From assembly GCA_024571205.1 (NCBI GenBank), contig GCA_024571205.1_4523.1: 64,000 bases of DNA; one strand, written 5' to 3'. The notes under the pieces are model-generated. The model did no database searches. It saw only the letters and a program-made list of their open reading frames with translations, and was not told where the DNA came from. This stretch comes from a phage. Below, in pieces: positions 6,707 to 60,563 of this stretch (positions are counted from its first letter, which is position 1; every line of letters begins with the position of its first letter). A program made the translations under genes and the position numbers.

Positions 6707-6730
6707 AAAGGAGACTTCGGTCTCCTTTCG
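6707..6730 (+). terminator. intrinsic terminator hairpin (UUCG tetraloop)
   Basis: aaaGGAGACttcgGTCTCCttt directly after gene 41 stop. Confidence 0.6.
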
Positions 6731-6732
6731 GG

Positions 6733-6762
6733 GTTTACATCTTCCTCTAGGCATGATATGAT
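6733..6762 (+). promoter_or_regulatory. T4-early-type promoter
   Basis: GTTTAC at 6733, then tatgat -10 region; about 55 nt upstream of ATG 6792. Confidence 0.5.
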
Positions 6763-6791
6763 GAACTTACACCAACCAAGAGGAAAACATT

Positions 6792-7166
6792 ATGAATATG
6801 TCTCAAGCAATTTTTACTGCAATCACCGAAAACACAACTGTTGAAGTAGTTTCTCCACTGGCAACCTACGTTATTCTTGCTCCTAAAACTATTGTATCTC
6901 GTATGGAAAACATGGGCAAACGTATCGTACAAATAGTTGGAGCTGGAAATCAAAAACTTGATTATCTGCGAACCATCAAAGCTTATGAACATTTCCAACT
7001 CGAAAAAGGTTCTCCTATCCAGGTAGAACTCGTAAATGGTGATATCGTTCGAGCAATGTTCCATCATTTCTATGCATTGAATGACCCATCTAAAGCGGTT
7101 CGTTTAATTGCATACGACGCAAACCAAAACGAAATCAACGCAGATATATCTAAATTACGTTTTTAA
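6792..7166 (+). CDS. hypothetical protein, 124 aa
   Basis: ORF with RBS GAGGAAAA; first gene of the 41-61 variable region. Confidence 0.6.
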   Translation: MNMSQAIFTAITENTTVEVVSPLATYVILAPKTIVSRMENMGKRIVQIVGAGNQKLDYLRTIKAYEHFQLEKGSPIQVELVNGDIVRAMFHHFYALNDPSKAVRLIAYDANQNEINADISKLRF

Positions 7167-7195
7167 GTTTACTTCTCCAGTAGTTGTGTTATTAT
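7167..7195 (+). promoter_or_regulatory. T4-early-type promoter with flanking inverted repeat
   Basis: GTTTAC 7167-7172, 17-nt spacer, tattat 7190-7195; arms ttctccagtagttg (7173-7186) and caactactggagaa (7204-7217). Confidence 0.6.
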
Positions 7196-7221
7196 AGACC
7201 TATCAACTACTGGAGAACAAA

Positions 7222-7539
7222 ATGAAAACCATCGATTGTAAAGCAGAATTTAAGATTTTTTATCACGGTTCAAGTAGTTCAGCTAAAATCGAAAACATGC
7301 TTTGTCCTCCTGAAGAAACAGGAGTTCTGTCTGAAACCGGACGTAAGAAAAACTTGAATCGTGTATTCTTTACTGAAGATATCGGTTTAGCAAAGATTTA
7401 CGCAGGACGAGCAGCACGCTCTTATGGAGGTGAACCACGTCTCTATCGAGTAATTTCTCCGGTAGATGTAGTTCAAATGAATGATACTAAAGGTGCTAGC
7501 GTATACCACGCAACCTGGGCCTTCTGCGAGGAAATATGA
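7222..7539 (+). CDS. hypothetical protein, 105 aa
   Basis: ORF following a promoter; RBS GGAGAAC inside the downstream repeat arm. Confidence 0.6.
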   Translation: MKTIDCKAEFKIFYHGSSSSAKIENMLCPPEETGVLSETGRKKNLNRVFFTEDIGLAKIYAGRAARSYGGEPRLYRVISPVDVVQMNDTKGASVYHATWAFCEEI

Positions 7540-8491: not shown

Positions 8492-8521
8492 GTTTACAAC
8501 GTTGATAGGTCATGTTACTAT
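8492..8521 (+). promoter_or_regulatory. T4-early-type promoter with flanking near-inverted repeat
   Basis: GTTTAC 8492, 18-nt spacer, tactat 8516-8521; arms gttgataggtc / gacttatcaac. Confidence 0.6.
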
Positions 8522-8548
8522 AGACTTATCAACTAATGGAGAACAAAA

Positions 8549-9881: not shown

Positions 9882-10349
9882 ATGGGTATTATTAACACTG
9901 CAATAGATTCAGTTTATGCATATAAGTTTATTCGACTAATGCAAAAACCTTTTACCGAATGGAAAGCATACGAAGCCAAAATCATCGACGAACGTGGAAG
10001 TGTTCTTAAACGTCCTTCTACTCCTGAAGAGAAAGCGGCTTATACACCTTTCCATGCTTCAGTTCGTTCAATGAAACGAATGTTGAGCACTGTTCCCGGT
10101 CTTAATGGAATGGCCTCAATGATGTCCGCCTGGAGTGCTGTAGCATCCCGCTATAACATCACAGAAGAACAACAGAAAGAAATATTTAAAGAACTCCCTT
10201 TATTTGAGGATATGGTTGCTGGTGATTCAGGTGGCAGTCCTCAAGCTATTGCATCAGGAACTACTACAGGTGCAGTTGTAAATAAAGGTCCAGAACAAAT
10301 TCCTTCCAAGAAAAGAAAGCGAATTAAAGTAAATATCAATAAGTTGTGA
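9882..10349 (+). CDS. hypothetical protein, 155 aa
   Basis: Start moved to ATG 9882, which follows RBS AGGAGG; basic C-terminus KKRKRIK. Confidence 0.55.
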   Translation: MGIINTAIDSVYAYKFIRLMQKPFTEWKAYEAKIIDERGSVLKRPSTPEEKAAYTPFHASVRSMKRMLSTVPGLNGMASMMSAWSAVASRYNITEEQQKEIFKELPLFEDMVAGDSGGSPQAIASGTTTGAVVNKGPEQIPSKKRKRIKVNINKL

Positions 10350-10356
10350 TATGATG

Positions 10357-10376
10357 GCCTTATTAATTTAAGGCCT
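10357..10376 (+). promoter_or_regulatory. stem-loop immediately upstream of the gene 61 RBS
   Basis: GGCCTTA-ttaatt-TAAGGCC, then tctGGAGaatactATG. Confidence 0.4.
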
Positions 10377-10388
10377 CTGGAGAATACT

Positions 10389-11693: not shown

Positions 11694-12215
11694 ATGGCGC
11701 ACTTTAATGAATGTTCACAACTTATTTCTGGTGTTGATAAAGCAGAAGAAGCTTATTTTAATGCTCTGATTCACGAAGATAAAGACCCACTGCAGGTAAT
11801 GCTTGATATGCAGAAATCTTTACAGGTTCGTCTGGCAAATGACAAGCCTGAACATAACAAACATCCTGATGAATTGGCTACTGCTGGTGATGTTGTTGAT
11901 TGGCTGCGTAATCAGAAAGATTATATTGATGATGAATTCCGTGAACTGCTGACTTCACTTGGTGGTATGAGCAATGGTGAAAAAGCCGCTAGCAGTGTAT
12001 GGAAGCCATGGAAAGCACAACATGCTGAATATCGAAATCGTCGTATCGATGAACTGTCTCCTGAAGACCAGCTTGAAATTAAATTTGAAATGATTGATAT
12101 TCTGCATTTCGTTCTAAATATGTTCCAAGGTCTTGGTCTTTCTGCTGAAGAAATCTTTAAACTTTACTACTTGAAAAACCAACACAACTTTGAACGTCAG
12201 GATAATGGTTACTAA
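11694..12215 (+). CDS. 56: gp56 dCTPase/dUTPase (dCTP pyrophosphatase)
   Basis: MAHFNEC start after RBS AGGAAA; MazG-like motifs; matches recalled T4 gp56. Confidence 0.85.
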   Translation: MAHFNECSQLISGVDKAEEAYFNALIHEDKDPLQVMLDMQKSLQVRLANDKPEHNKHPDELATAGDVVDWLRNQKDYIDDEFRELLTSLGGMSNGEKAASSVWKPWKAQHAEYRNRRIDELSPEDQLEIKFEMIDILHFVLNMFQGLGLSAEEIFKLYYLKNQHNFERQDNGY

Positions 12216-12221
12216 TTAAGT

Positions 12222-12229
12222 TATAAATA
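12222..12229 (+). promoter_or_regulatory. late promoter TATAAATA upstream of soc
   Basis: Exact TATAAATA about 30 nt upstream of soc ATG. Confidence 0.5.
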
Positions 12230-12260
12230 CACCTGTAATTAAACAACAAAGGAGTTAATT

Positions 12261-12497
12261 ATGGGTGGTTATGTAAACATCAAAACCTTTACGCATCCTG
12301 CTGGTGAAGGCAAAGAAGTTAAAGGTATGGAAGTTTCTGTTCCGTTTGAGATTTATTCAAACGAACATCGGATTGCAGATTCTCATTATCAGACTTTCCC
12401 GTCTGAAAAAGCTGCTTACACTACTGTGGTGACTGACGCAGCAGATTGGCGTACTAAGAACGCTGCAATGTTTACCCCTACACCAGTAAGTGGTTAA
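12261..12497 (+). CDS. soc: Soc small outer capsid protein
   Basis: 78 aa; YVNIKTF..HYQTFPSEKAAYTTV matches recalled T4 Soc. Confidence 0.8.
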   Translation: MGGYVNIKTFTHPAGEGKEVKGMEVSVPFEIYSNEHRIADSHYQTFPSEKAAYTTVVTDAADWRTKNAAMFTPTPVSG

Positions 12498-12505
12498 ATA
12501 ATTTA

Positions 12506-12531
12506 AGGAATCCTTCGGGATTCCTTTTTTC
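12506..12531 (+). terminator. intrinsic terminator (UUCG tetraloop)
   Basis: AGGAATCCttcgGGATTCCT followed by TTTTTT. Confidence 0.75.
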
Positions 12532-13849: not shown

Positions 13850-14010
13850 AAGAGAAATTTAAAGAGAAATTCTTACTAGAAATCAAGGAAAAAGACTTTG
13901 AGACATGGTATCGAATGGTGAAAGGGTTAACATTGCTTTTTAAAGCATCGTTATTCATGTTAGAACAACCTGGCCCTGATGGACCTTTAGTAGGAAAGCT
14001 TAAAAAGTAG
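13846..14010 (+). CDS. hypothetical protein, 54 aa
   Basis: ATGA overlap; below the ORF-track cutoff. Confidence 0.4.
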   Translation: MKEKFKEKFLLEIKEKDFETWYRMVKGLTLLFKASLFMLEQPGPDGPLVGKLKK

Positions 14011-14038
14011 TTTACATTCCCTCCTCTCGTGTTATGAT
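14010..14038 (+). promoter_or_regulatory. T4-early-type promoter
   Basis: GTTTAC 14010, 17-nt spacer, tatgat 14033-14038; precedes ATG 14066. Confidence 0.55.
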
Positions 14039-14065
14039 AGGCTTATCTTTAAATGGAGGTCTATC

Positions 14066-14647
14066 ATGACATGTCAATCTGAACTTCAAGAACGCGAATA
14101 TCTCGCAGCACTAATTGATGATAAATTCACTAAACAAGAACAAAACATTCTCTGGGCTTGCACTGATTATAAGGAAGACCCAGATTTCCACTATGAATTA
14201 GACCGTCTTGTTCGTAAGCATATGACTTCTACAGTACCAGTAGAACTCTACCGTGGTGTAACTCCAGAAGAAGTAGAACATCTTTCATTGTTATCTGTAG
14301 GATGCCATTGGTCTCCTGGACGAGTAACATCGTTTACAACAGACTTTGGTACGGCCAGACAGTTCTCTGGGAGTTGGGAATATCAAACGTACACTATTCT
14401 TAGTCTCAGGAATGCTCCGTTCATTTTCGATTACTACCAAAACATGGTTAACATTGTACTCGCCGGAAAGAACCCTAAGCATGTTATGGAAGAAAAACGT
14501 GTTGACGTCCTAGATATGATTGAATCTGAACAAGAATACATGGTCTCAGGTATCTCTAGATTTGAGATTGTAGAAATTGAAGACTTAGAATATGACCCTT
14601 TATCTCGGTTATACAAAATCATTCATTTGAAAATGTTGAATTTTTAG
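14066..14647 (+). CDS. Mod-type ADP-ribosyltransferase (R-S-E class), 193 aa
   Basis: R (ELYRGV), S-x-T (TSFTT) and E-x-E (EQEYMVSG) motifs; tandem paralog follows, as with T4 modB/modA. Confidence 0.75.
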   Translation: MTCQSELQEREYLAALIDDKFTKQEQNILWACTDYKEDPDFHYELDRLVRKHMTSTVPVELYRGVTPEEVEHLSLLSVGCHWSPGRVTSFTTDFGTARQFSGSWEYQTYTILSLRNAPFIFDYYQNMVNIVLAGKNPKHVMEEKRVDVLDMIESEQEYMVSGISRFEIVEIEDLEYDPLSRLYKIIHLKMLNF

Positions 14648-18529: not shown

Positions 18530-18559
18530 GTTTACAACCAAGGATGGTTGGAGTATAAT
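18530..18559 (+). promoter_or_regulatory. T4-early-type promoter
   Basis: GTTTAC 18530, 18-nt spacer, tataat 18554-18559. Confidence 0.6.
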
Positions 18560-19086: not shown

Positions 19087-19117
19087 GTTGTACATCCAAG
19101 GACGGATGGAGTATAAT
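19087..19117 (+). promoter_or_regulatory. T4-early-type promoter (variant -35)
   Basis: gttgtac, 18-nt spacer, tataat 19112-19117. Confidence 0.5.
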
Positions 19118-20065: not shown

Positions 20066-20094
20066 GTTTACTTCTCCTCTGGTTTTGATATTAT
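20066..20094 (+). promoter_or_regulatory. T4-early-type promoter with perfect flanking inverted repeat
   Basis: GTTTAC 20066-20071, 17-nt spacer, tattat 20089-20094; arms ttctcctctggtt (20072-20084) and aaccagaggagaa (20104-20116), the latter containing the RBS. Confidence 0.6.
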
Positions 20095-20120
20095 AACCAT
20101 ATTAACCAGAGGAGAATAAT

Positions 20121-20645
20121 ATGTTAGTTTACCGCGTAGAACGTAGTTTTTGTACTCAACGTGAATCATTACCAGGAATTGCTATCGAAGACGGTAAAGC
20201 CGTCAGAATTTGGGAAACCTCTTGGAATAAAGAACCACGCTCACCTTACGGTTGGTCTGGCACTGACAACTCTGAAGAAACATGGGAGTTCCTTGATAAA
20301 CATGGAATAATCTCAGGTAACTTCTACCATCACGGCGACAACTATAATGTCCCTAATCGTCCTACAGTAAATGAAGACAAACTTCTTGAACAAAATATCT
20401 TAAGATACCATAGAATTGAGTACACATTTGAATTGAGTGAAGATTGGGCTCAAGGGTTCTATTTTGGATTTGAAAGCGTTGACGCGGTTTATGCATGGTT
20501 TGATGACCAGGTGGATGTTGAACTCTTGAAAGCTAAAGGATACTACATCGCGGTCTATGAAGCACCTGATTTCATCCTCGGAAGTTGTCAATTAATGTTT
20601 AGACGTTCATTGGCAGAACAAGTTGATTTTATTTTGCTAAAATGA
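20121..20645 (+). CDS. hypothetical protein, 174 aa
   Basis: ORF after a promoter; RBS GAGGAG. Confidence 0.6.
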   Translation: MLVYRVERSFCTQRESLPGIAIEDGKAVRIWETSWNKEPRSPYGWSGTDNSEETWEFLDKHGIISGNFYHHGDNYNVPNRPTVNEDKLLEQNILRYHRIEYTFELSEDWAQGFYFGFESVDAVYAWFDDQVDVELLKAKGYYIAVYEAPDFILGSCQLMFRRSLAEQVDFILLK

Positions 20646-20674
20646 TGTACAACAACTATGGTCTATGATACTAT
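20645..20674 (+). promoter_or_regulatory. T4-early-type promoter (variant -35)
   Basis: atgtac, 18-nt spacer, tactat; inverted repeat ggtctat / atagacc around the -10. Confidence 0.5.
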
Positions 20675-20702
20675 AGACCTATCAAAACAAGAGGAGAATA
20701 TT

Positions 20703-23864: not shown

Positions 23865-24965
23865 ATGAAAGTTATGTTTATCCCATCTCGTGCAGTCCCA
23901 TTTAATCCTGAACGTGTACAAGGTGGTCTTGAAGCAGTACATTTAAATGTGTTGAAATATTTAGTTTCTATCGGTGCCGATATTGATTATATCGGTTTTG
24001 ATAATGACACATTTGGTGATTGGAAGGTTAATCATCATCCTGTTGGTCATCTGACTAAATTCAGTCTAGGTATGAGTTATACTATGGCTCGTAAGATTGT
24101 TGAACTAGCCGGCATTAATGAGTACGATTTCGTTGTTACAATGGAACCGACCAAACTAACCGTTCAGGCAATTAAAGACGCAGGTCTCTCTAAAGTTCAT
24201 AAGAATTTTATGGCAACACCATTTGAACCGGTATCTCGTGGTATTGTTCAAATTTGGGACCAGACTATTCAAATTCATAAGAACGGTGGTAAGAGTTATG
24301 CTCCTACTAAAGCCTTCCGTGAATTTGAACGCAAATATTGTTATATGACTTCAGGTCTGACTGACAAAATTGATTATGATTATTGGCGAGCAAATCCGTT
24401 GTTTGAAGCCGAAGATTATCCGGTTATTTGTTTGAATGAGAAACCTGAAGTTCTTCCGGCGACTGATCTGATTATTAGTGCACAACGTTATGACACTAAA
24501 ATGCGTCGTACTGATGTTGCTCTTGAAGCGATTAAAGCACTAGGCGAAAATGGTGCAGGATACTGTCCTAGTAAATGGGCACCACCGGCTAAGTATCCTG
24601 TTATTATTGATGCTCCACACAGTGAAATCATGGAACGTCTTAAAACAGCTAAAGCACTTATCAATACGTGTCCTGACACGGGTACGGTAGAGAATAGTTC
24701 TATTGAAGCCATCTCTAAAGGTGTCCCTGTGATTCAGTTAGTTTTTAAGGATTATCCGCACGCGACATTCGAATATGACCCAGATACTGTGCGTGTAGAA
24801 ATTGATTCCTCTACTCCTAAGAAAGAAGTAGTTGCGCTTTACACAAAAGCTGTATTAGAATTCACTGACACATACGAAGCTCGAGTTAAACGTGCTGAAG
24901 CCGTATGGAAGAAGTATAACAGAGATGCAGTTGTTGCGATGTGGGATAAAATCTTCACAGCGTAA
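23865..24965 (+). CDS. GT-B fold glycosyltransferase-like protein, 366 aa
   Basis: C-terminal GTVENSSIEAISKGVPVI resembles the GT-B E..(7)..E / EA..G.PVI donor-binding motif; N-terminal MKVMFIPS..GGLE; inserted between gene 39 and rIIA. Confidence 0.6.
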   Translation: MKVMFIPSRAVPFNPERVQGGLEAVHLNVLKYLVSIGADIDYIGFDNDTFGDWKVNHHPVGHLTKFSLGMSYTMARKIVELAGINEYDFVVTMEPTKLTVQAIKDAGLSKVHKNFMATPFEPVSRGIVQIWDQTIQIHKNGGKSYAPTKAFREFERKYCYMTSGLTDKIDYDYWRANPLFEAEDYPVICLNEKPEVLPATDLIISAQRYDTKMRRTDVALEAIKALGENGAGYCPSKWAPPAKYPVIIDAPHSEIMERLKTAKALINTCPDTGTVENSSIEAISKGVPVIQLVFKDYPHATFEYDPDTVRVEIDSSTPKKEVVALYTKAVLEFTDTYEARVKRAEAVWKKYNRDAVVAMWDKIFTA

Positions 24966-24981
24966 ATCCTGAATCGCCTGA

Positions 24982-25032
24982 GGCACTATTACACATAAGA
25001 TGATAGATTATATGGTCTTTAGTAATAGTGCC
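24982..25032 (+). promoter_or_regulatory. inverted repeat enclosing a -10-like element upstream of the rIIA.1-like ORF
   Basis: ggcactattac (24982-24992) / gtaatagtgcc (25022-25032) flanking gatagattatat. Confidence 0.35.
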
Positions 25033-25057
25033 CTAGGAATCTACTGAAGAGAATATT

Positions 25058-29263: not shown

Positions 29264-29293
29264 GTTTACAACTAAGTAGGACTATGATACAGT
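29264..29293 (+). promoter_or_regulatory. T4-early-type promoter with inverted repeat
   Basis: GTTTAC 29264; taggacta / tagtccta arms flank the -10 region. Confidence 0.5.
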
Positions 29294-29319
29294 AGTCCTA
29301 TCTAAAAGAGGATAACATC

Positions 29320-29775: not shown

Positions 29776-29805
29776 GTTTACAACACAGTAGGATTATGGT
29801 ATAGT
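29776..29805 (+). promoter_or_regulatory. T4-early-type promoter with inverted repeat
   Basis: GTTTAC 29776, 18-nt spacer, tatagt 29800-29805. Confidence 0.5.
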
Positions 29806-29834
29806 AGTCCTACTTAAACATGAGGAATACAAAA

Positions 29835-30037: not shown

Positions 30038-30067
30038 TTGTACAAACTCTTGAGAGCAGAGTATAAT
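30038..30067 (+). promoter_or_regulatory. T4-early-type promoter (variant -35) with inverted repeat
   Basis: ttgtac, 18-nt spacer, tataat 30062-30067; arms gagagca / tgctctc. Confidence 0.5.
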
Positions 30068-30111
30068 GCTCTCATGGATTACAAAAACATTAATCAATTG
30101 AGGAAATTAGC

Positions 30112-49312: not shown

Positions 49313-49341
49313 GTTTACTTCTTCCATGGATGTGTTAGTAT
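49313..49341 (+). promoter_or_regulatory. T4-early-type promoter
   Basis: GTTTAC 49313, 17-nt spacer, tagtat; leader atagacctatcaa. Confidence 0.6.
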
Positions 49342-49370
49342 AGACCTATCAACAACATGAGGAAATCAAA

Positions 49371-49763
49371 ATGGAAATCGGAAAATCTTATATCATTAAC
49401 CCTTTATTTAAAGACGACTTTGTTCAAGAAGCACCACATAATAACGCTAAGATGTTAAAATTGATTGAACTCCATGGGCCTAGTTTTGTTGTAAACGGAA
49501 TGGAACCTGATTATGATAGCGATACGCCAAACGTAGTAAGTGTAACTATGGAAGATGGTACTGTATGTTCTGCCGGTGGTGAAATTGGAACTTATTTTGA
49601 GATTTATCCTGACGAGTTCAAATACTTTACTGAGGTAGATTTAGTAAAGCCTCAAACTACTAACGAAGGTATAACTTTAGGTGTAACAAAAATCCATTGT
49701 ATCGTAGATGAAACCAACGTCGACGAAATCATCGAACTTTTGCAAAAAACTTTTAAAAAGTAG
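49371..49763 (+). CDS. hypothetical protein, 130 aa
   Basis: ORF after a promoter; RBS TGAGGAAA. Confidence 0.6.
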   Translation: MEIGKSYIINPLFKDDFVQEAPHNNAKMLKLIELHGPSFVVNGMEPDYDSDTPNVVSVTMEDGTVCSAGGEIGTYFEIYPDEFKYFTEVDLVKPQTTNEGITLGVTKIHCIVDETNVDEIIELLQKTFKK

Positions 49764-49792
49764 TGTACAATCAGATAGGGTTATGTTATAGT
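49764..49792 (+). promoter_or_regulatory. T4-early-type promoter (GTGTAC variant) with inverted repeat
   Basis: gtgtac 49764, 17-nt spacer, tatagt; arms ataggg / ccctat. Confidence 0.5.
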
Positions 49793-49825
49793 AGCCCTAT
49801 CAAATCAAAAGTGAAGGAGAATAAA

Positions 49826-55381: not shown

Positions 55382-55792
55382 ATGAAAGATATTGCCGCCG
55401 AATATTCCTTTATTAAATATATAGAATTGGAGCTATTAGAAGATGCAACAATTAAAACCATTGATGCCCCTAATAAGAAAAATGTCATATACGCTATTGC
55501 TATAGATGACGAACTTGTGTATATTGGTAAAACCAAGAATTTAAAGAAACGCATTAACTATTATCGAACAGCCATAAATCGAAAAGACCAGACTTCAGAT
55601 TCAAGAAAATCACTTATGATTTTGGATGCCTTAATGCAAGGCAAAAAGGTTGAATTCTGGGCCCGCCAATGTTTTGACCTTTCAGTCACTAACGAACTTG
55701 GTTCAATGACCATTGCAACAATGGACCTTGAAGAACCACTTTTTATCAAAAAGTTCAACCCGCCTTGGAATATCCAACATAAGAAAAAGTAG
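55382..55792 (+). CDS. denA: endonuclease II (GIY-YIG family)
   Basis: 136 aa; GIY-YIG-like VIYAIAI..VYIGKTKNLKKRINYYR; T4 gene order nrdB-denA-rnlA. Confidence 0.75.
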   Translation: MKDIAAEYSFIKYIELELLEDATIKTIDAPNKKNVIYAIAIDDELVYIGKTKNLKKRINYYRTAINRKDQTSDSRKSLMILDALMQGKKVEFWARQCFDLSVTNELGSMTIATMDLEEPLFIKKFNPPWNIQHKKK

Positions 55793-55821
55793 TTTACATA
55801 CCACAAGGATTGTGGTACAAT
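55792..55821 (+). promoter_or_regulatory. T4-early-type promoter with inverted repeat
   Basis: GTTTAC 55792, 18-nt spacer, tacaat; arms accaca / tgtggt. Confidence 0.55.
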
Positions 55822-56975: not shown

Positions 56976-57005
56976 GTTTACAAACACCAAGGATGGTGTT
57001 ACTAT
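56976..57005 (+). promoter_or_regulatory. T4-early-type promoter with inverted repeat
   Basis: GTTTAC 56976, 18-nt spacer, tactat; arms acacc / ggtgt. Confidence 0.55.
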
Positions 57006-57035
57006 GGTTTTTATCAACAACACGAGGAGAAAATT

Positions 57036-57536
57036 ATGAATATGCAATTGATTACTAACGATATGGTTGTGGCAGCATTTGGTGATTCTACAGATGGAAT
57101 CCGGGTCTTTAAGAAAGGACGTCCAGTTGGTTATCTTACTGACCTCCGTGTTACACTGGCCAAAAATCTTAAAAAGAAAGTAAAACAAAAAGAGTATTCC
57201 ACCCGATACGCTGAAGAGAAACGCGAAGCGATGCCAGAAGCAGTTAATGCCATGGTAGAATTTCTTCAAAACAATTTGACTAAATACGACGCTAATGTGT
57301 TCATTAATATTAGTCAACCAAACGTACATATCGCAGGTATAAAATTCTACATCATTTGCGACCCTCTTACCGACAAATTCAACCGTCTCGGAATTTCAAG
57401 CCCGTATCATACAGCAGAAGAGTTGTGTGTATTGTTTGAATCGTACAAAATCCAGTGTGATGGTTTGAAAACCGTTCTTATCAATGGATTATCCCGAGAT
57501 GAAATCATTGAGATTATTAAAACATGCTTAAAGTAA
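57036..57536 (+). CDS. alc: Alc-like protein (inhibitor of transcription from cytosine-containing DNA)
   Basis: 166 aa from ATG 57036 after RBS GAGGAGAA; position between rnlA and pseT as in T4. Call rests mainly on position and size. Confidence 0.6.
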   Translation: MNMQLITNDMVVAAFGDSTDGIRVFKKGRPVGYLTDLRVTLAKNLKKKVKQKEYSTRYAEEKREAMPEAVNAMVEFLQNNLTKYDANVFINISQPNVHIAGIKFYIICDPLTDKFNRLGISSPYHTAEELCVLFESYKIQCDGLKTVLINGLSRDEIIEIIKTCLK

Positions 57537-58167: not shown

Positions 58168-58382
58168 CTAAAGAACAGCATGAATACATTAAAGGGCTTA
58201 TCTATGAATCTGAAATGGCGGCTATGATTTATGGGCGCCAGATTCAACGATTAGAATCTTTGCCTCCGACTAATGACCGCTTGTTAGTTCAGTCTCGTGC
58301 TAATCTGAAAAATGAATACCAAAACAAGTGGGCAGTAGCGACTAAAGCTCTTCATGAGTATATCGAATCTTTAGTAAAATAG
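58158..58382 (+). CDS. hypothetical protein, 74 aa
   Basis: Overlapping ORF in the pseT-upstream array. Confidence 0.5.
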   Translation: MPMTKEQHEYIKGLIYESEMAAMIYGRQIQRLESLPPTNDRLLVQSRANLKNEYQNKWAVATKALHEYIESLVK

Positions 58383-58411
58383 TTTACAAACTCTCAGGAG
58401 CAGAGTATAAT
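58382..58411 (+). promoter_or_regulatory. T4-early-type promoter with inverted repeat
   Basis: GTTTAC 58382, 18-nt spacer, tataat 58406-58411; arms ggagca / tgctcc. Confidence 0.55.
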
Positions 58412-58439
58412 GCTCCTATGGATAATTGAGGAAATCTAA

Positions 58440-60505: not shown

Positions 60506-60535
60506 GTTTACAACATGGTGGAGTTGTGATACTAT
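60506..60535 (+). promoter_or_regulatory. T4-early-type promoter
   Basis: GTTTAC 60506, 18-nt spacer, tactat 60530-60535. Confidence 0.55.
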
Positions 60536-60563
60536 AACTCTACCAACAAATGAGGAAATTGAA

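Follow-up and report, generated by a model that had tools for sequence, protein, structure and literature searches.

A subset of the early promoters in the phage DNA studied here, a stretch of 64,000 nucleotides (nt) from GenBank assembly GCA_024571205.1 (contig GCA_024571205.1_4523.1; hereafter the window), lies inside hairpins whose downstream arm carries the Shine-Dalgarno sequence and/or the AUG of the following gene, as exemplified by the motB.2 promoter at 20066. With a probability of roughly 60%, these masking hairpins represent an early-promoter version of the gate described for the T4 genes e, soc, 49, and I-TevI, which restricts translation to the transcripts started by the gene's own promoter. 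The evidence consists of the helices themselves, their statistical excess, the co-evolution of their arms, a sense-strand bias, and the enrichment of masking at promoter-proximal genes; on the sequences compared, the masking subset is real and conserved, T4 included.

Masking Hairpins in the Window

Masking is strong at three promoters and weak at two others:

20066..20123, + strand: promoter of motB.2 with masking hairpin; -35 box GTTTAC 20066-71, -10 box TATTAT 20089-94 in the loop, predicted start A 20101, ATG 20121; 5' arm TTCTCCTCTGGTT 20072-84 in the -35/-10 spacer, 3' arm AACCAGAGGAGAA 20104-16 with the Shine-Dalgarno GAGGAG, + strand, 13 base pairs (bp), perfect
7167..7224, + strand: promoter of the open reading frame (ORF) 7222-7539 with masking hairpin; -35 box 7167-72, -10 box TATTAT 7190-95 in the loop, predicted start A 7202, ATG 7222; 5' arm 7173-86, 3' arm 7204-17 with GGAG, + strand, 14 bp, perfect
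14010..14073, + strand: promoter of a modB-like gene with masking hairpin; arms 14028-14043 / 14058-14073, predicted start about 14045; opening cost 18.2 vs 4.5 kcal/mol
6733..6794, + strand: weak masking of ORF 6792; spacer TTCCTCT 6742-48 paired with the Shine-Dalgarno AGAGGAA 6779-85, ATG 6792; opening-cost difference 4.2 kcal/mol
49313..49373, + strand: weak, interrupted pairing at frd.2; spacer TTCTTCCATG paired with CATGAGGAA, ATG 49371; opening-cost difference 4.7 kcal/mol

The opening cost, defined as the free energy required for unpairing the region from -14 to +5 about the AUG, was compared between a leader of 120 upstream nt and the RNA beginning at the predicted start. In the read-through RNA the translation start costs 19.6 kcal/mol to open in motB.2 and 19.5 kcal/mol in ORF 7222, against 3.3 and 3.2 kcal/mol in the promoter's own RNA; a start at the embedded promoter lowers the cost from 18-20 to 3-4.5 kcal/mol at the three strong sites (differences of 16.2, 16.4, and 13.7 kcal/mol at 7167, 20066, and 14010); at the remaining 21 promoters the change is at most 3.8 kcal/mol. 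Folded separately, the long RNAs of the strong sites have free energies between -25 and -29 kcal/mol (z between -2.6 and -3.7), the Shine-Dalgarno being part of a helix, and the short RNAs are essentially without structure; in particular, the motB.2 read-through RNA folds at -29.4 kcal/mol (z -3.7) and its own-promoter RNA at -2.4 kcal/mol. The translation start is held in stable helices of 13-17 bp in the upstream-derived RNA at 7167, 14010, and 20066, and at 21 promoters no such helix is present. The predicted start sites fall between the arms, and the 5' arm, being located in the -35/-10 spacer or in the -10 box, lies outside any RNA started 6-8 nt after the -10 box.

As a positive control, soc (ATG 12261) is the sole gene above 8 kcal/mol among the 30 + strand genes of the window without an early promoter; its difference is 8.9 kcal/mol and its late promoter, TATAAATA at 12223-30, sits inside a weak AU-rich pairing over the translation start (12213-12263), so that the known T4 arrangement of soc is kept in the window. 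The primase gene 61 (ATG 10389) carries the hairpin GGCCTTA-TTAATT-TAAGGCC just 5' of its Shine-Dalgarno, after a TATGAT -10-like box (10343-10388); with an opening-cost difference of 5.2 kcal/mol, it may be a further case, tied to a middle promoter.

The Early-Promoter Set

The + strand was scanned for promoters with the T4-type early motif [GT]T[GT]TAC-N17/18-TAnnnT, which occurs in the window at 26 sites, 50-80 nt ahead of a Shine-Dalgarno and ATG. A scan with the generic sigma-70 consensus was discarded as uninformative, since it returned 60 sites against 55 expected, and the T4-type motif was needed. The sites are sigma-70-like early promoters with a spacing of 17-18 bp and an AT-rich upstream region. 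Start sites were predicted from the -10 spacing and placed about 7 nt beyond the -10 box; 24 of the 26 promoters have A as the seventh base past the box, which fits a conserved start site inside the recurrent TATCAA motif. A (C)TATCAA block occupies the predicted start, about +1 to +8, at most early promoters (7200-7208, 8526-8533, 20679-20686, and 49799-49806 are examples) and constitutes an extra conserved block of the early-promoter cassette. The RefSeq record of T4 contains no promoter features, so that its annotation gives no mapped start sites, and no genome-wide start-site map of T4 was found in the searchable full text.

The segments from the -35 box to the ATG fold at a mean z of -1.87 relative to dinucleotide shuffles (t-test p 1e-4), with z of -2 or lower at 13 of the 26 promoters; the promoter repeats exceed chance. 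About half of the early promoters have a short inverted repeat whose 5' arm lies in the spacer and whose 3' arm ends near +1 or within the spacer. Four classes were distinguished. In class A the 3' arm covers the Shine-Dalgarno/AUG (strong at 7167, 20066, and 14010; weak at 6733 and 49313). The stems of class B span the -10 box, with their end at about +1 (8492, 20645, 29264, 29776, 30038, 49763, 58382, and 60506), class C comprises small hairpins within the spacer (18530, 19088, 55792, and 56976), and nine promoters have no stem.

These classes delimit what a previous sequence-only reading of the window had proposed, namely that early promoters are embedded in inverted repeats whose downstream arm carries the ribosome-binding site and that each small early gene is gated in this way. 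When the sites were read and the longest stem was searched for, all ten of the repeats it listed were found, exactly in place or within a few bases. Nine of them lie at early promoters of the form GTTTAC-N17/18-TAnnnT, whereas 24982-25032 has no recognizable promoter. The -10 box is in the loop, as had been claimed, at 7173, 20072, 8501, 29277, 30051, 49774, and 58396, and not at 55799 and 56983, where the stem is wholly within the spacer, nor at the promoterless 24982. The ribosome-binding site was correctly placed inside the downstream arm at 20072/20116 and 7173/7217, with GAGGAG and GGAG in the respective 3' arms, and the other eight sites do have repeats, with the ribosome-binding site outside the arm at all of them. 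At 7167, at 20066, and at the unlisted 14010, masking that a start inside the hairpin relieves has good support from the sequence; this does not extend to the promoter set as a whole. With strong masking at 3 and weak masking at 2 of 26 promoters, and 21 that change by so little, the device is not systematic. The earlier observation is in this sense partly confirmed and its interpretation partly supported. It had missed the strong masking hairpin 14028-14043 / 14058-14073, the weak masking at 6742-48 / 6779-85 and at promoter 49313, the -10-straddling stems at 20645, 29776, and 60506, and the spacer hairpins at 18530 and 19088.

Conservation in Related Phages

The 6 kb segment around the motB.2 promoter is 100% identical to Escherichia phage PECP20 and shares about 96-97% identity with Shf125875 and other Mosigvirus (RB69-like) phages, and by this identity the window belongs to a Mosigvirus, an RB69-like T4-type phage; its promoter regions share just 70-85% identity with T4. 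Early transcription runs along the + strand through dexA, motB, motB.2, cef, goF, 39, rIIA, rIIB, and onwards. ORF 20121 is the ortholog of RB69 motB.2, ORF 14066 encodes a ModB/ModA-type ADP-ribosyltransferase, and ORF 57036 encodes Alc; ORF 7222-7539 (phrog_2110) and ORF 6792 are of unknown function. No match to the curated covariance models of Rfam reached the gathering score anywhere in the 64 kb.

For comparison, 150 related loci were collected from IMG/VR with five anchors (gp39, gp61, RnlA, gp52, and ORF 7222; gp61 yielded just 2 loci), together with three T4 segments. The pooled scan of 137 sources, that is 136 loci, including those from annotated records, and the window, gave 595 unique promoter-gene instances. 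Masking of at least 8 kcal/mol is found in 17.6% of them, compared with 1.4% among the 700 control genes, which are promoterless and were cut at -22 (odds ratio 15; p 6e-27, an optimistic value, as discussed below), and masking of at least 12 kcal/mol in 10.6% and 0.6%, respectively. For most instances the A+T content of the 30 nt upstream is 60-80%, and the segments upstream of the start have z of -2 or lower in 25.7% of cases.

The downstream proteins cluster into 133 families, 19 of which have at least one masked member. Masking affects 26 of 37 alc genes, 27 of 35 modB/modA genes, 17 of 18 motB.2 genes, and 9 of 15 genes for a 37-residue protein corresponding to T4 ndd.4; T4 itself is masked at modB, motB.2, alc, 30.8, and ndd.4. 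In the modB-like family the pairing between the -10 box and the AUG is kept with covariation in 27 of 35 members, T4 modB included. In the motB.2 homologs the masking is kept while the sequences of the arms have changed:

motB.2 arms in the window: TTCTCCTCTGGTT / AACCAGAGGAGAA
motB.2 arms in a second group: TTCTCCTCATG / CATGAGGAGAA
motB.2 arms in T4: TTCCTCGG.TAGTTGTGGT / ACCATAGCTACTGAGGA; -23.7 kcal/mol
motB.2 arms in other groups: ATGATGACCTC / GAGGTCATCAT; the 5' arm is the -10 box plus discriminator and the 3' arm runs through the AUG

Throughout the alc, motB.2, and modB families the 3' arm is invariably on the Shine-Dalgarno/AUG, and the 5' arm varies between the spacer and the -10 box. 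The alc gene is masked by a helix between spacer and Shine-Dalgarno in the 26 of 37 T4-like variants (loci L044-L081 compared), T4 among them, whereas in the window (57012-57036) and in L043, whose RnlA is 96% identical, it is unmasked and preceded by a spacer hairpin with an AGGA loop; judging from these sequences, the alc hairpin type is a lineage-specific swap. The weakly masking 6733 site scores 56 bits with the covariance model derived from alc.

Co-Evolution of the Arms

Alignment of 24 alc promoter regions with MAFFT followed by RNAalifold predicted no pairs, because sequence alignment leaves the arms out of register, and this approach was dropped for an alignment-free test. In the latter, the duplex energy of each upstream-of-start segment with its own leader is compared with that obtained with the leaders of other members of the family. 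The cognate and non-cognate energies are -17.6 and -10.6 kcal/mol for alc, -12.9 and -9.7 kcal/mol for modB, -17.9 and -10.4 kcal/mol for motB.2, and -16.4 and -11.3 kcal/mol for the 37-residue family (permutation p 2e-4 in each of the four), in contrast with -2.16 and -2.12 for a hairpin-less family used as negative control (p 0.35). A covariance model seeded with alc retrieved 94 matches; in its alignment 72% of cells are paired vs 57% after shuffling, both sides have changed in 182 cells vs 76, and the covariation score is 0.336 vs 0.158 shuffled and 0.088 or less with the partners slid, figures that are to be read as supportive and not as exact. Stems clear of the translation start covary as strongly as the masking ones.

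The strand on which the pairing is kept can be read from the imperfections. Interior mismatches in otherwise perfect stems are 65 G.T and 18 A.C on the sense strand (p 2e-7), a bias also present in the stems clear of the ribosome-binding site (43 vs 13), and folding is better for the sense than for the antisense strand (p 5e-15). This argues for promoter stems that act as hairpins in sense RNA and not in DNA; since the arms lie upstream of the start, the sense RNA carrying both of them is the read-through RNA.

Relation to Known Systems

The general stem pattern is not new and belongs to the promoter-early stem-loops (PeSLs), described in RB49/phi1 and then in PST/T4 and nt-1/KVP40 (Arbiol 2010, PMC2839356; Comeau 2014, PMC4122927). 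For PeSLs, attenuation of upstream transcription and a role in modular recombination have been proposed; they are documented recombination points that generate mini-circles (PMC2839356, PMC4122927), and one GC-rich RB49 stem lowered lacZ read-through (PMC2839356). The sites of the window resemble them in having a sigma-70-type early promoter that is strong and preceded by an AT-rich stretch, in the intergenic location between the upstream stop codon and the downstream Shine-Dalgarno and ATG, and in fitting the PST/T4 consensus TTTACW-N17-TAYWAT. They differ in that the published subclasses have the stem upstream of the start, read as terminator/attenuator and recombination site; a 3' arm formed by the Shine-Dalgarno/AUG with a translational role is absent from PMC2839356 and PMC4122927, and RB69-like phages are not among the PeSL carriers in these two papers.

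The masking itself has its precedent in T4 e, soc, 49, and I-TevI, where a hairpin hides the ribosome-binding site and encloses a late promoter (Uzan and Miller 2010, PMC3014915). In both cases the Shine-Dalgarno and/or AUG is paired in the long read-through RNA and the promoter lies inside the hairpin, so that its own transcript is devoid of the 5' arm. In the known cases, however, the promoter is a late one (gp55, TATAAATA) and expression is delayed to late infection, while the masking promoters of the window are early and of sigma-70 type (GTTTAC-N17-TATTAT or TATGAT, with TATAAATA present only at soc, 12223-30) and serve immediate-early host-takeover genes (modB and motB.2; alc elsewhere). 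The predicted effect is a mirror image, with expression limited to the earliest phase. Aeh1 mobE and T4 segB, too, lie within longer transcripts and have their ribosome-binding sites masked by a hairpin, and differ in being homing endonuclease genes (Gibb and Edgell 2009, cited in PMC3014915). No description of early-promoter hairpins masking the ribosome-binding site was found in the searchable full text, the PeSL papers, or the 2010 T4 reviews; an earlier notice in older literature is possible.

Another relevant system is the phage endoribonuclease RegB, which cuts GGAG in early Shine-Dalgarno sequences and whose cleavage is inhibited where the RNA is structured (Durand et al. 2006, PMC1702504). 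The masked sites 7212-15 and 20111-14 consist of GGAG followed by an A-rich tract, as in the RegB/S1 consensus, although RegB is a trans-acting nuclease and not the hairpin itself. The T4 motB.2 and modB sites are cut by RegB in vivo, and the modB RNA was resistant in vitro, in the manner of a structured RNA (PMC1702504). Masking may be linked to RegB: cutting in vivo despite resistance in vitro would be explained if the substrate were the short promoter-proximal RNA.

Alternative Explanations

All the stems could be PeSL terminators, attenuators, or hairpins protecting 3' ends, acting on transcripts that arrive from upstream, with the complementarity to the Shine-Dalgarno arising as a by-product of pyrimidine-rich spacers. 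The published proposal of a terminator function and the lacZ result on RB49 speak for this, as does the fact that class B and C stems, at 12 of the 17 stem-bearing promoters, are wholly upstream of the start, clear of the translation start, and covary just as strongly. On the other hand, U-runs are missing after all of the promoter stems, none of which is called as a terminator on the + strand, and for lack of the U-run an intrinsic terminator was rejected. Moreover, in alc, modB, and motB.2 the 3' arm is always on the Shine-Dalgarno/AUG while the 5' arm moves, a constraint unexpected of a pure terminator, and masking is 15-fold enriched over control genes. As an account of every stem this explanation is unlikely; for the class B stems, termination or 3'-end protection remains the best idea. 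Translational coupling, in which the stem is melted by the ribosome finishing the upstream gene, and only in this way does the downstream one become translatable in polycistronic RNA, would agree with 5' arms that begin 6 nt (7167), 10 nt (20066), and 17 nt (14010) past the upstream stop codon. A terminating ribosome, with a footprint of about 9-10 nt beyond the stop codon, would melt no more than 3-4 of the 14 bp at 7167 and leave the stems at 20066 and 14010 closed. Coupling also leaves unexplained why the promoter is always between the arms; it is judged very improbable.

A role at the DNA level, as cruciforms or palindromic protein sites that tune the promoter or as recombination sites, is suggested by the recombination and mini-circles documented for PeSLs (PMC2839356, PMC4122927) and by the T4 record, which notes a 14-nt promoter-hairpin loop once reported inverted. 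The arm sequences, however, vary freely by site and lineage with complementarity kept, so that no sequence-specific protein site is indicated; a palindromic protein-binding site was rejected on this ground, the arms not being conserved in sequence, and on that of the sense-strand G.U bias of the mismatches. The same excess of G.T over A.C and the better folding of the sense strand also stand against cruciforms, whose extrusion is unfavorable with loops of 17-30 nt, and a DNA-level role is accordingly judged very improbable.

Several observations weigh against the early-promoter gate. The instances from related phages are not phylogenetically independent, which makes the p-values optimistic, and the covariance-model alignment is fitted to structure on related sequences. 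The long stem at 7167 is confined to this lineage, its relatives having only a TCTCC/GGAGA pairing of 5-6 bp with a difference of 1-4.5 kcal/mol, and the device is dispensable, as alc is unmasked in the window and masked in most T4-like phages. Finally, ribosome binding during transcription, or unwinding of the stem by ribosomes from the upstream gene, could weaken the block in vivo.

Proposed Mechanism

PeSL stems would fold only in RNA reading through from upstream, as the promoter's own transcript begins downstream of the stem. At the masking promoters, the read-through RNA would contain both arms and form a helix of 11-17 bp that hides the translation start from the 30S subunit, whereas the RNA from the embedded promoter, predicted to start about 20 nt before the AUG, would be devoid of the 5' arm and have an open translation start. 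Translation of the masked gene would then be confined essentially to the first minutes of infection, when its own early promoter is firing, and the gene would be silent in long read-through transcripts of the delayed-early or middle type. GGAG, when exposed, would be a target of RegB, which structure would block, and a short pulse of protein is expected from this. The start positions, the block to translation, and its timing are all predicted ones.

In a broader and more doubtful version of this mechanism, the cassette would be a combined transcription-and-translation switch occurring in several interchangeable forms, with PeSL stems acting primarily as translational insulators by which the output of each gene is bound to its own promoter; such a function, if real, would explain their upkeep by compensatory evolution. 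In one form, the spacer or -10 box would pair directly with the Shine-Dalgarno/AUG, giving for the host-takeover genes alc, modB, and motB.2 a short immediate-early pulse from an own RNA that is open and sensitive to RegB, and a silent read-through RNA; in a second form, the AGGA-loop spacer hairpin could recruit a host or phage RNA-binding protein and do the same job in trans.

Stems Clear of the Ribosome-Binding Site

The class B stems are the following; in the five of them listed by the sequence-only reading the stem ends at about +1 and the Shine-Dalgarno is 5-30 nt further downstream, outside the arm.

8492..8533, + strand: PeSL-type stem over the -10 box, GTTGATAGGTC 8501-11 / GACTTATCAAC 8523-33; z -4.3, opening-cost difference 1.6
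20645..20679, + strand: PeSL-type stem of the cef promoter, GGTCTAT 20660-66 / ATAGACC 20673-79; z -2.1, difference 1.4
29264..29301, + strand: PeSL-type stem ending at the predicted start, TAGGACTA 29277-84 / TAGTCCTA 29293-300; upstream-segment z -4.2, difference 3.5
29776..29814, + strand: PeSL-type stem, paralog of 29264, AGTAGGATTAT / GTAGTCCTACT, with G.U pairs; z -3.3
30038..30074, + strand: PeSL-type stem, TGAGAGCA 30051-58 / TGCTCTCA 30067-74; ATG 30112
49763..49801, + strand: PeSL-type stem of a frd.1-like gene, GATAGGGTTAT 49774-84 / GTAGCCCTATC 49791-801; z -4.7, upstream-segment z -8.0
58382..58417, + strand: PeSL-type stem, AGGAGCA 58396-402 / TGCTCCT 58411-17
60506..60545, + strand: PeSL-type stem with G.U pairs, TGGTGGAGTTGTG / TATAACTCTACCA; z -5.4; T4 counterpart between cd.3 and cd.2

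Paralogous promoter cassettes occur within the window (30038/58382, 29264/29776, and 7167/8492); the 30038 stem is a paralog of 58382 and also of the T4 motB promoter stem, with compensatory differences, and the orthologs of the frd.1-like stem covary (cognate -15.4 vs non-cognate -9.1 kcal/mol). The T4 counterpart of window 60516-60545 includes T4 133300-133313, flagged in the T4 record as 'inverted complement of previously reported sequence' that 'corrects the early promoter'. This segment is exactly the loop TTGTGATATTATAG, which holds the -10 box, between the hairpin arms GGTAGAG / CTCTACC, and the discrepancy is either a sequencing artefact at the hairpin or a true inversion between the arms.

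The class C hairpins are smaller:

18530..18559 (hairpin 18536-18549), + strand: spacer hairpin with AGGA loop, AACCA-AGGA-TGGTT
19088..19117 (hairpin 19093-19108), + strand: spacer hairpin of the motB promoter, CATCC-AAGGAC-GGATG
55792..55821, + strand: spacer hairpin of the rnlA promoter, arms 55799-806 / 55810-17, TACCACAA-GGA-TTGTGGTA; the last part of the 3' arm is shared with the -10 box; z -2.5
56976..57005, + strand: spacer hairpin of the alc promoter, arms 56983-89 / 56994-57000, AACACCA-AGGA-TGGTGTT; difference 3.8 kcal/mol

At these four sites and at the T4 rIIA.1 promoter the stems covary and the AGGA loop is conserved. AGGA is enriched in 461 unique spacers (65 occurrences vs 34 +/- 5 expected); 36 of the 65 are at spacer position 8, and 39, from 18 gene families, fall within a loop closed by a stem of 4 bp or more. 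The GGA in the loop resembles the binding motif of CsrA.

Other hairpins of the window are unrelated to masking. The repeat at 24982-25032 was rejected as a promoter hairpin, having neither promoter motif nor U-run, and falls outside the device:

24977..25037, + strand: stable hairpin, not at a promoter; 11 bp core GGCACTATTAC / GTAATAGTGCC plus flanking pairs, 29-nt loop; -28.5 kcal/mol, z -4.1

It stands directly 3' of the stop codon of ORF 23865-24965 (phrog_8302, unknown function), ahead of rIIA.1. The sole good + strand terminator near the promoters, and outside them, is a UUCG-loop hairpin at 12505-12526 (AAGGAATCC-TTCG-GGATTCCTT followed by a T-run), just upstream of the early promoter 12541. 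A similar hairpin at 6710-6725 (GGAGAC-TTCG-GTCTCC followed by TTTCGGGG) is just upstream of the early promoter 6733. Both are probably true terminators, and the arrangement is also found 3' of gene 41 in related phages (L151-L153).

Biological Significance

The masking hairpins offer a compact design rule for synthetic operons, in which translation would be decided by the choice of promoter, and a warning for annotation, as the amount of protein made from masked genes would not follow from their RNA abundance. Timed phage gene expression has its reference system in T4, and the limitation of immediate-early proteins to the first minutes of infection, despite continued read-through, has so far been explained mainly by RegB and promoter shut-off. 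If the early-promoter gate is correct, the widespread PeSL stems would gain a testable molecular function, and a conserved, covarying hairpin would be a simple cis-acting timer for alc, modB, and motB.2, the mirror of the lysozyme (e) case.

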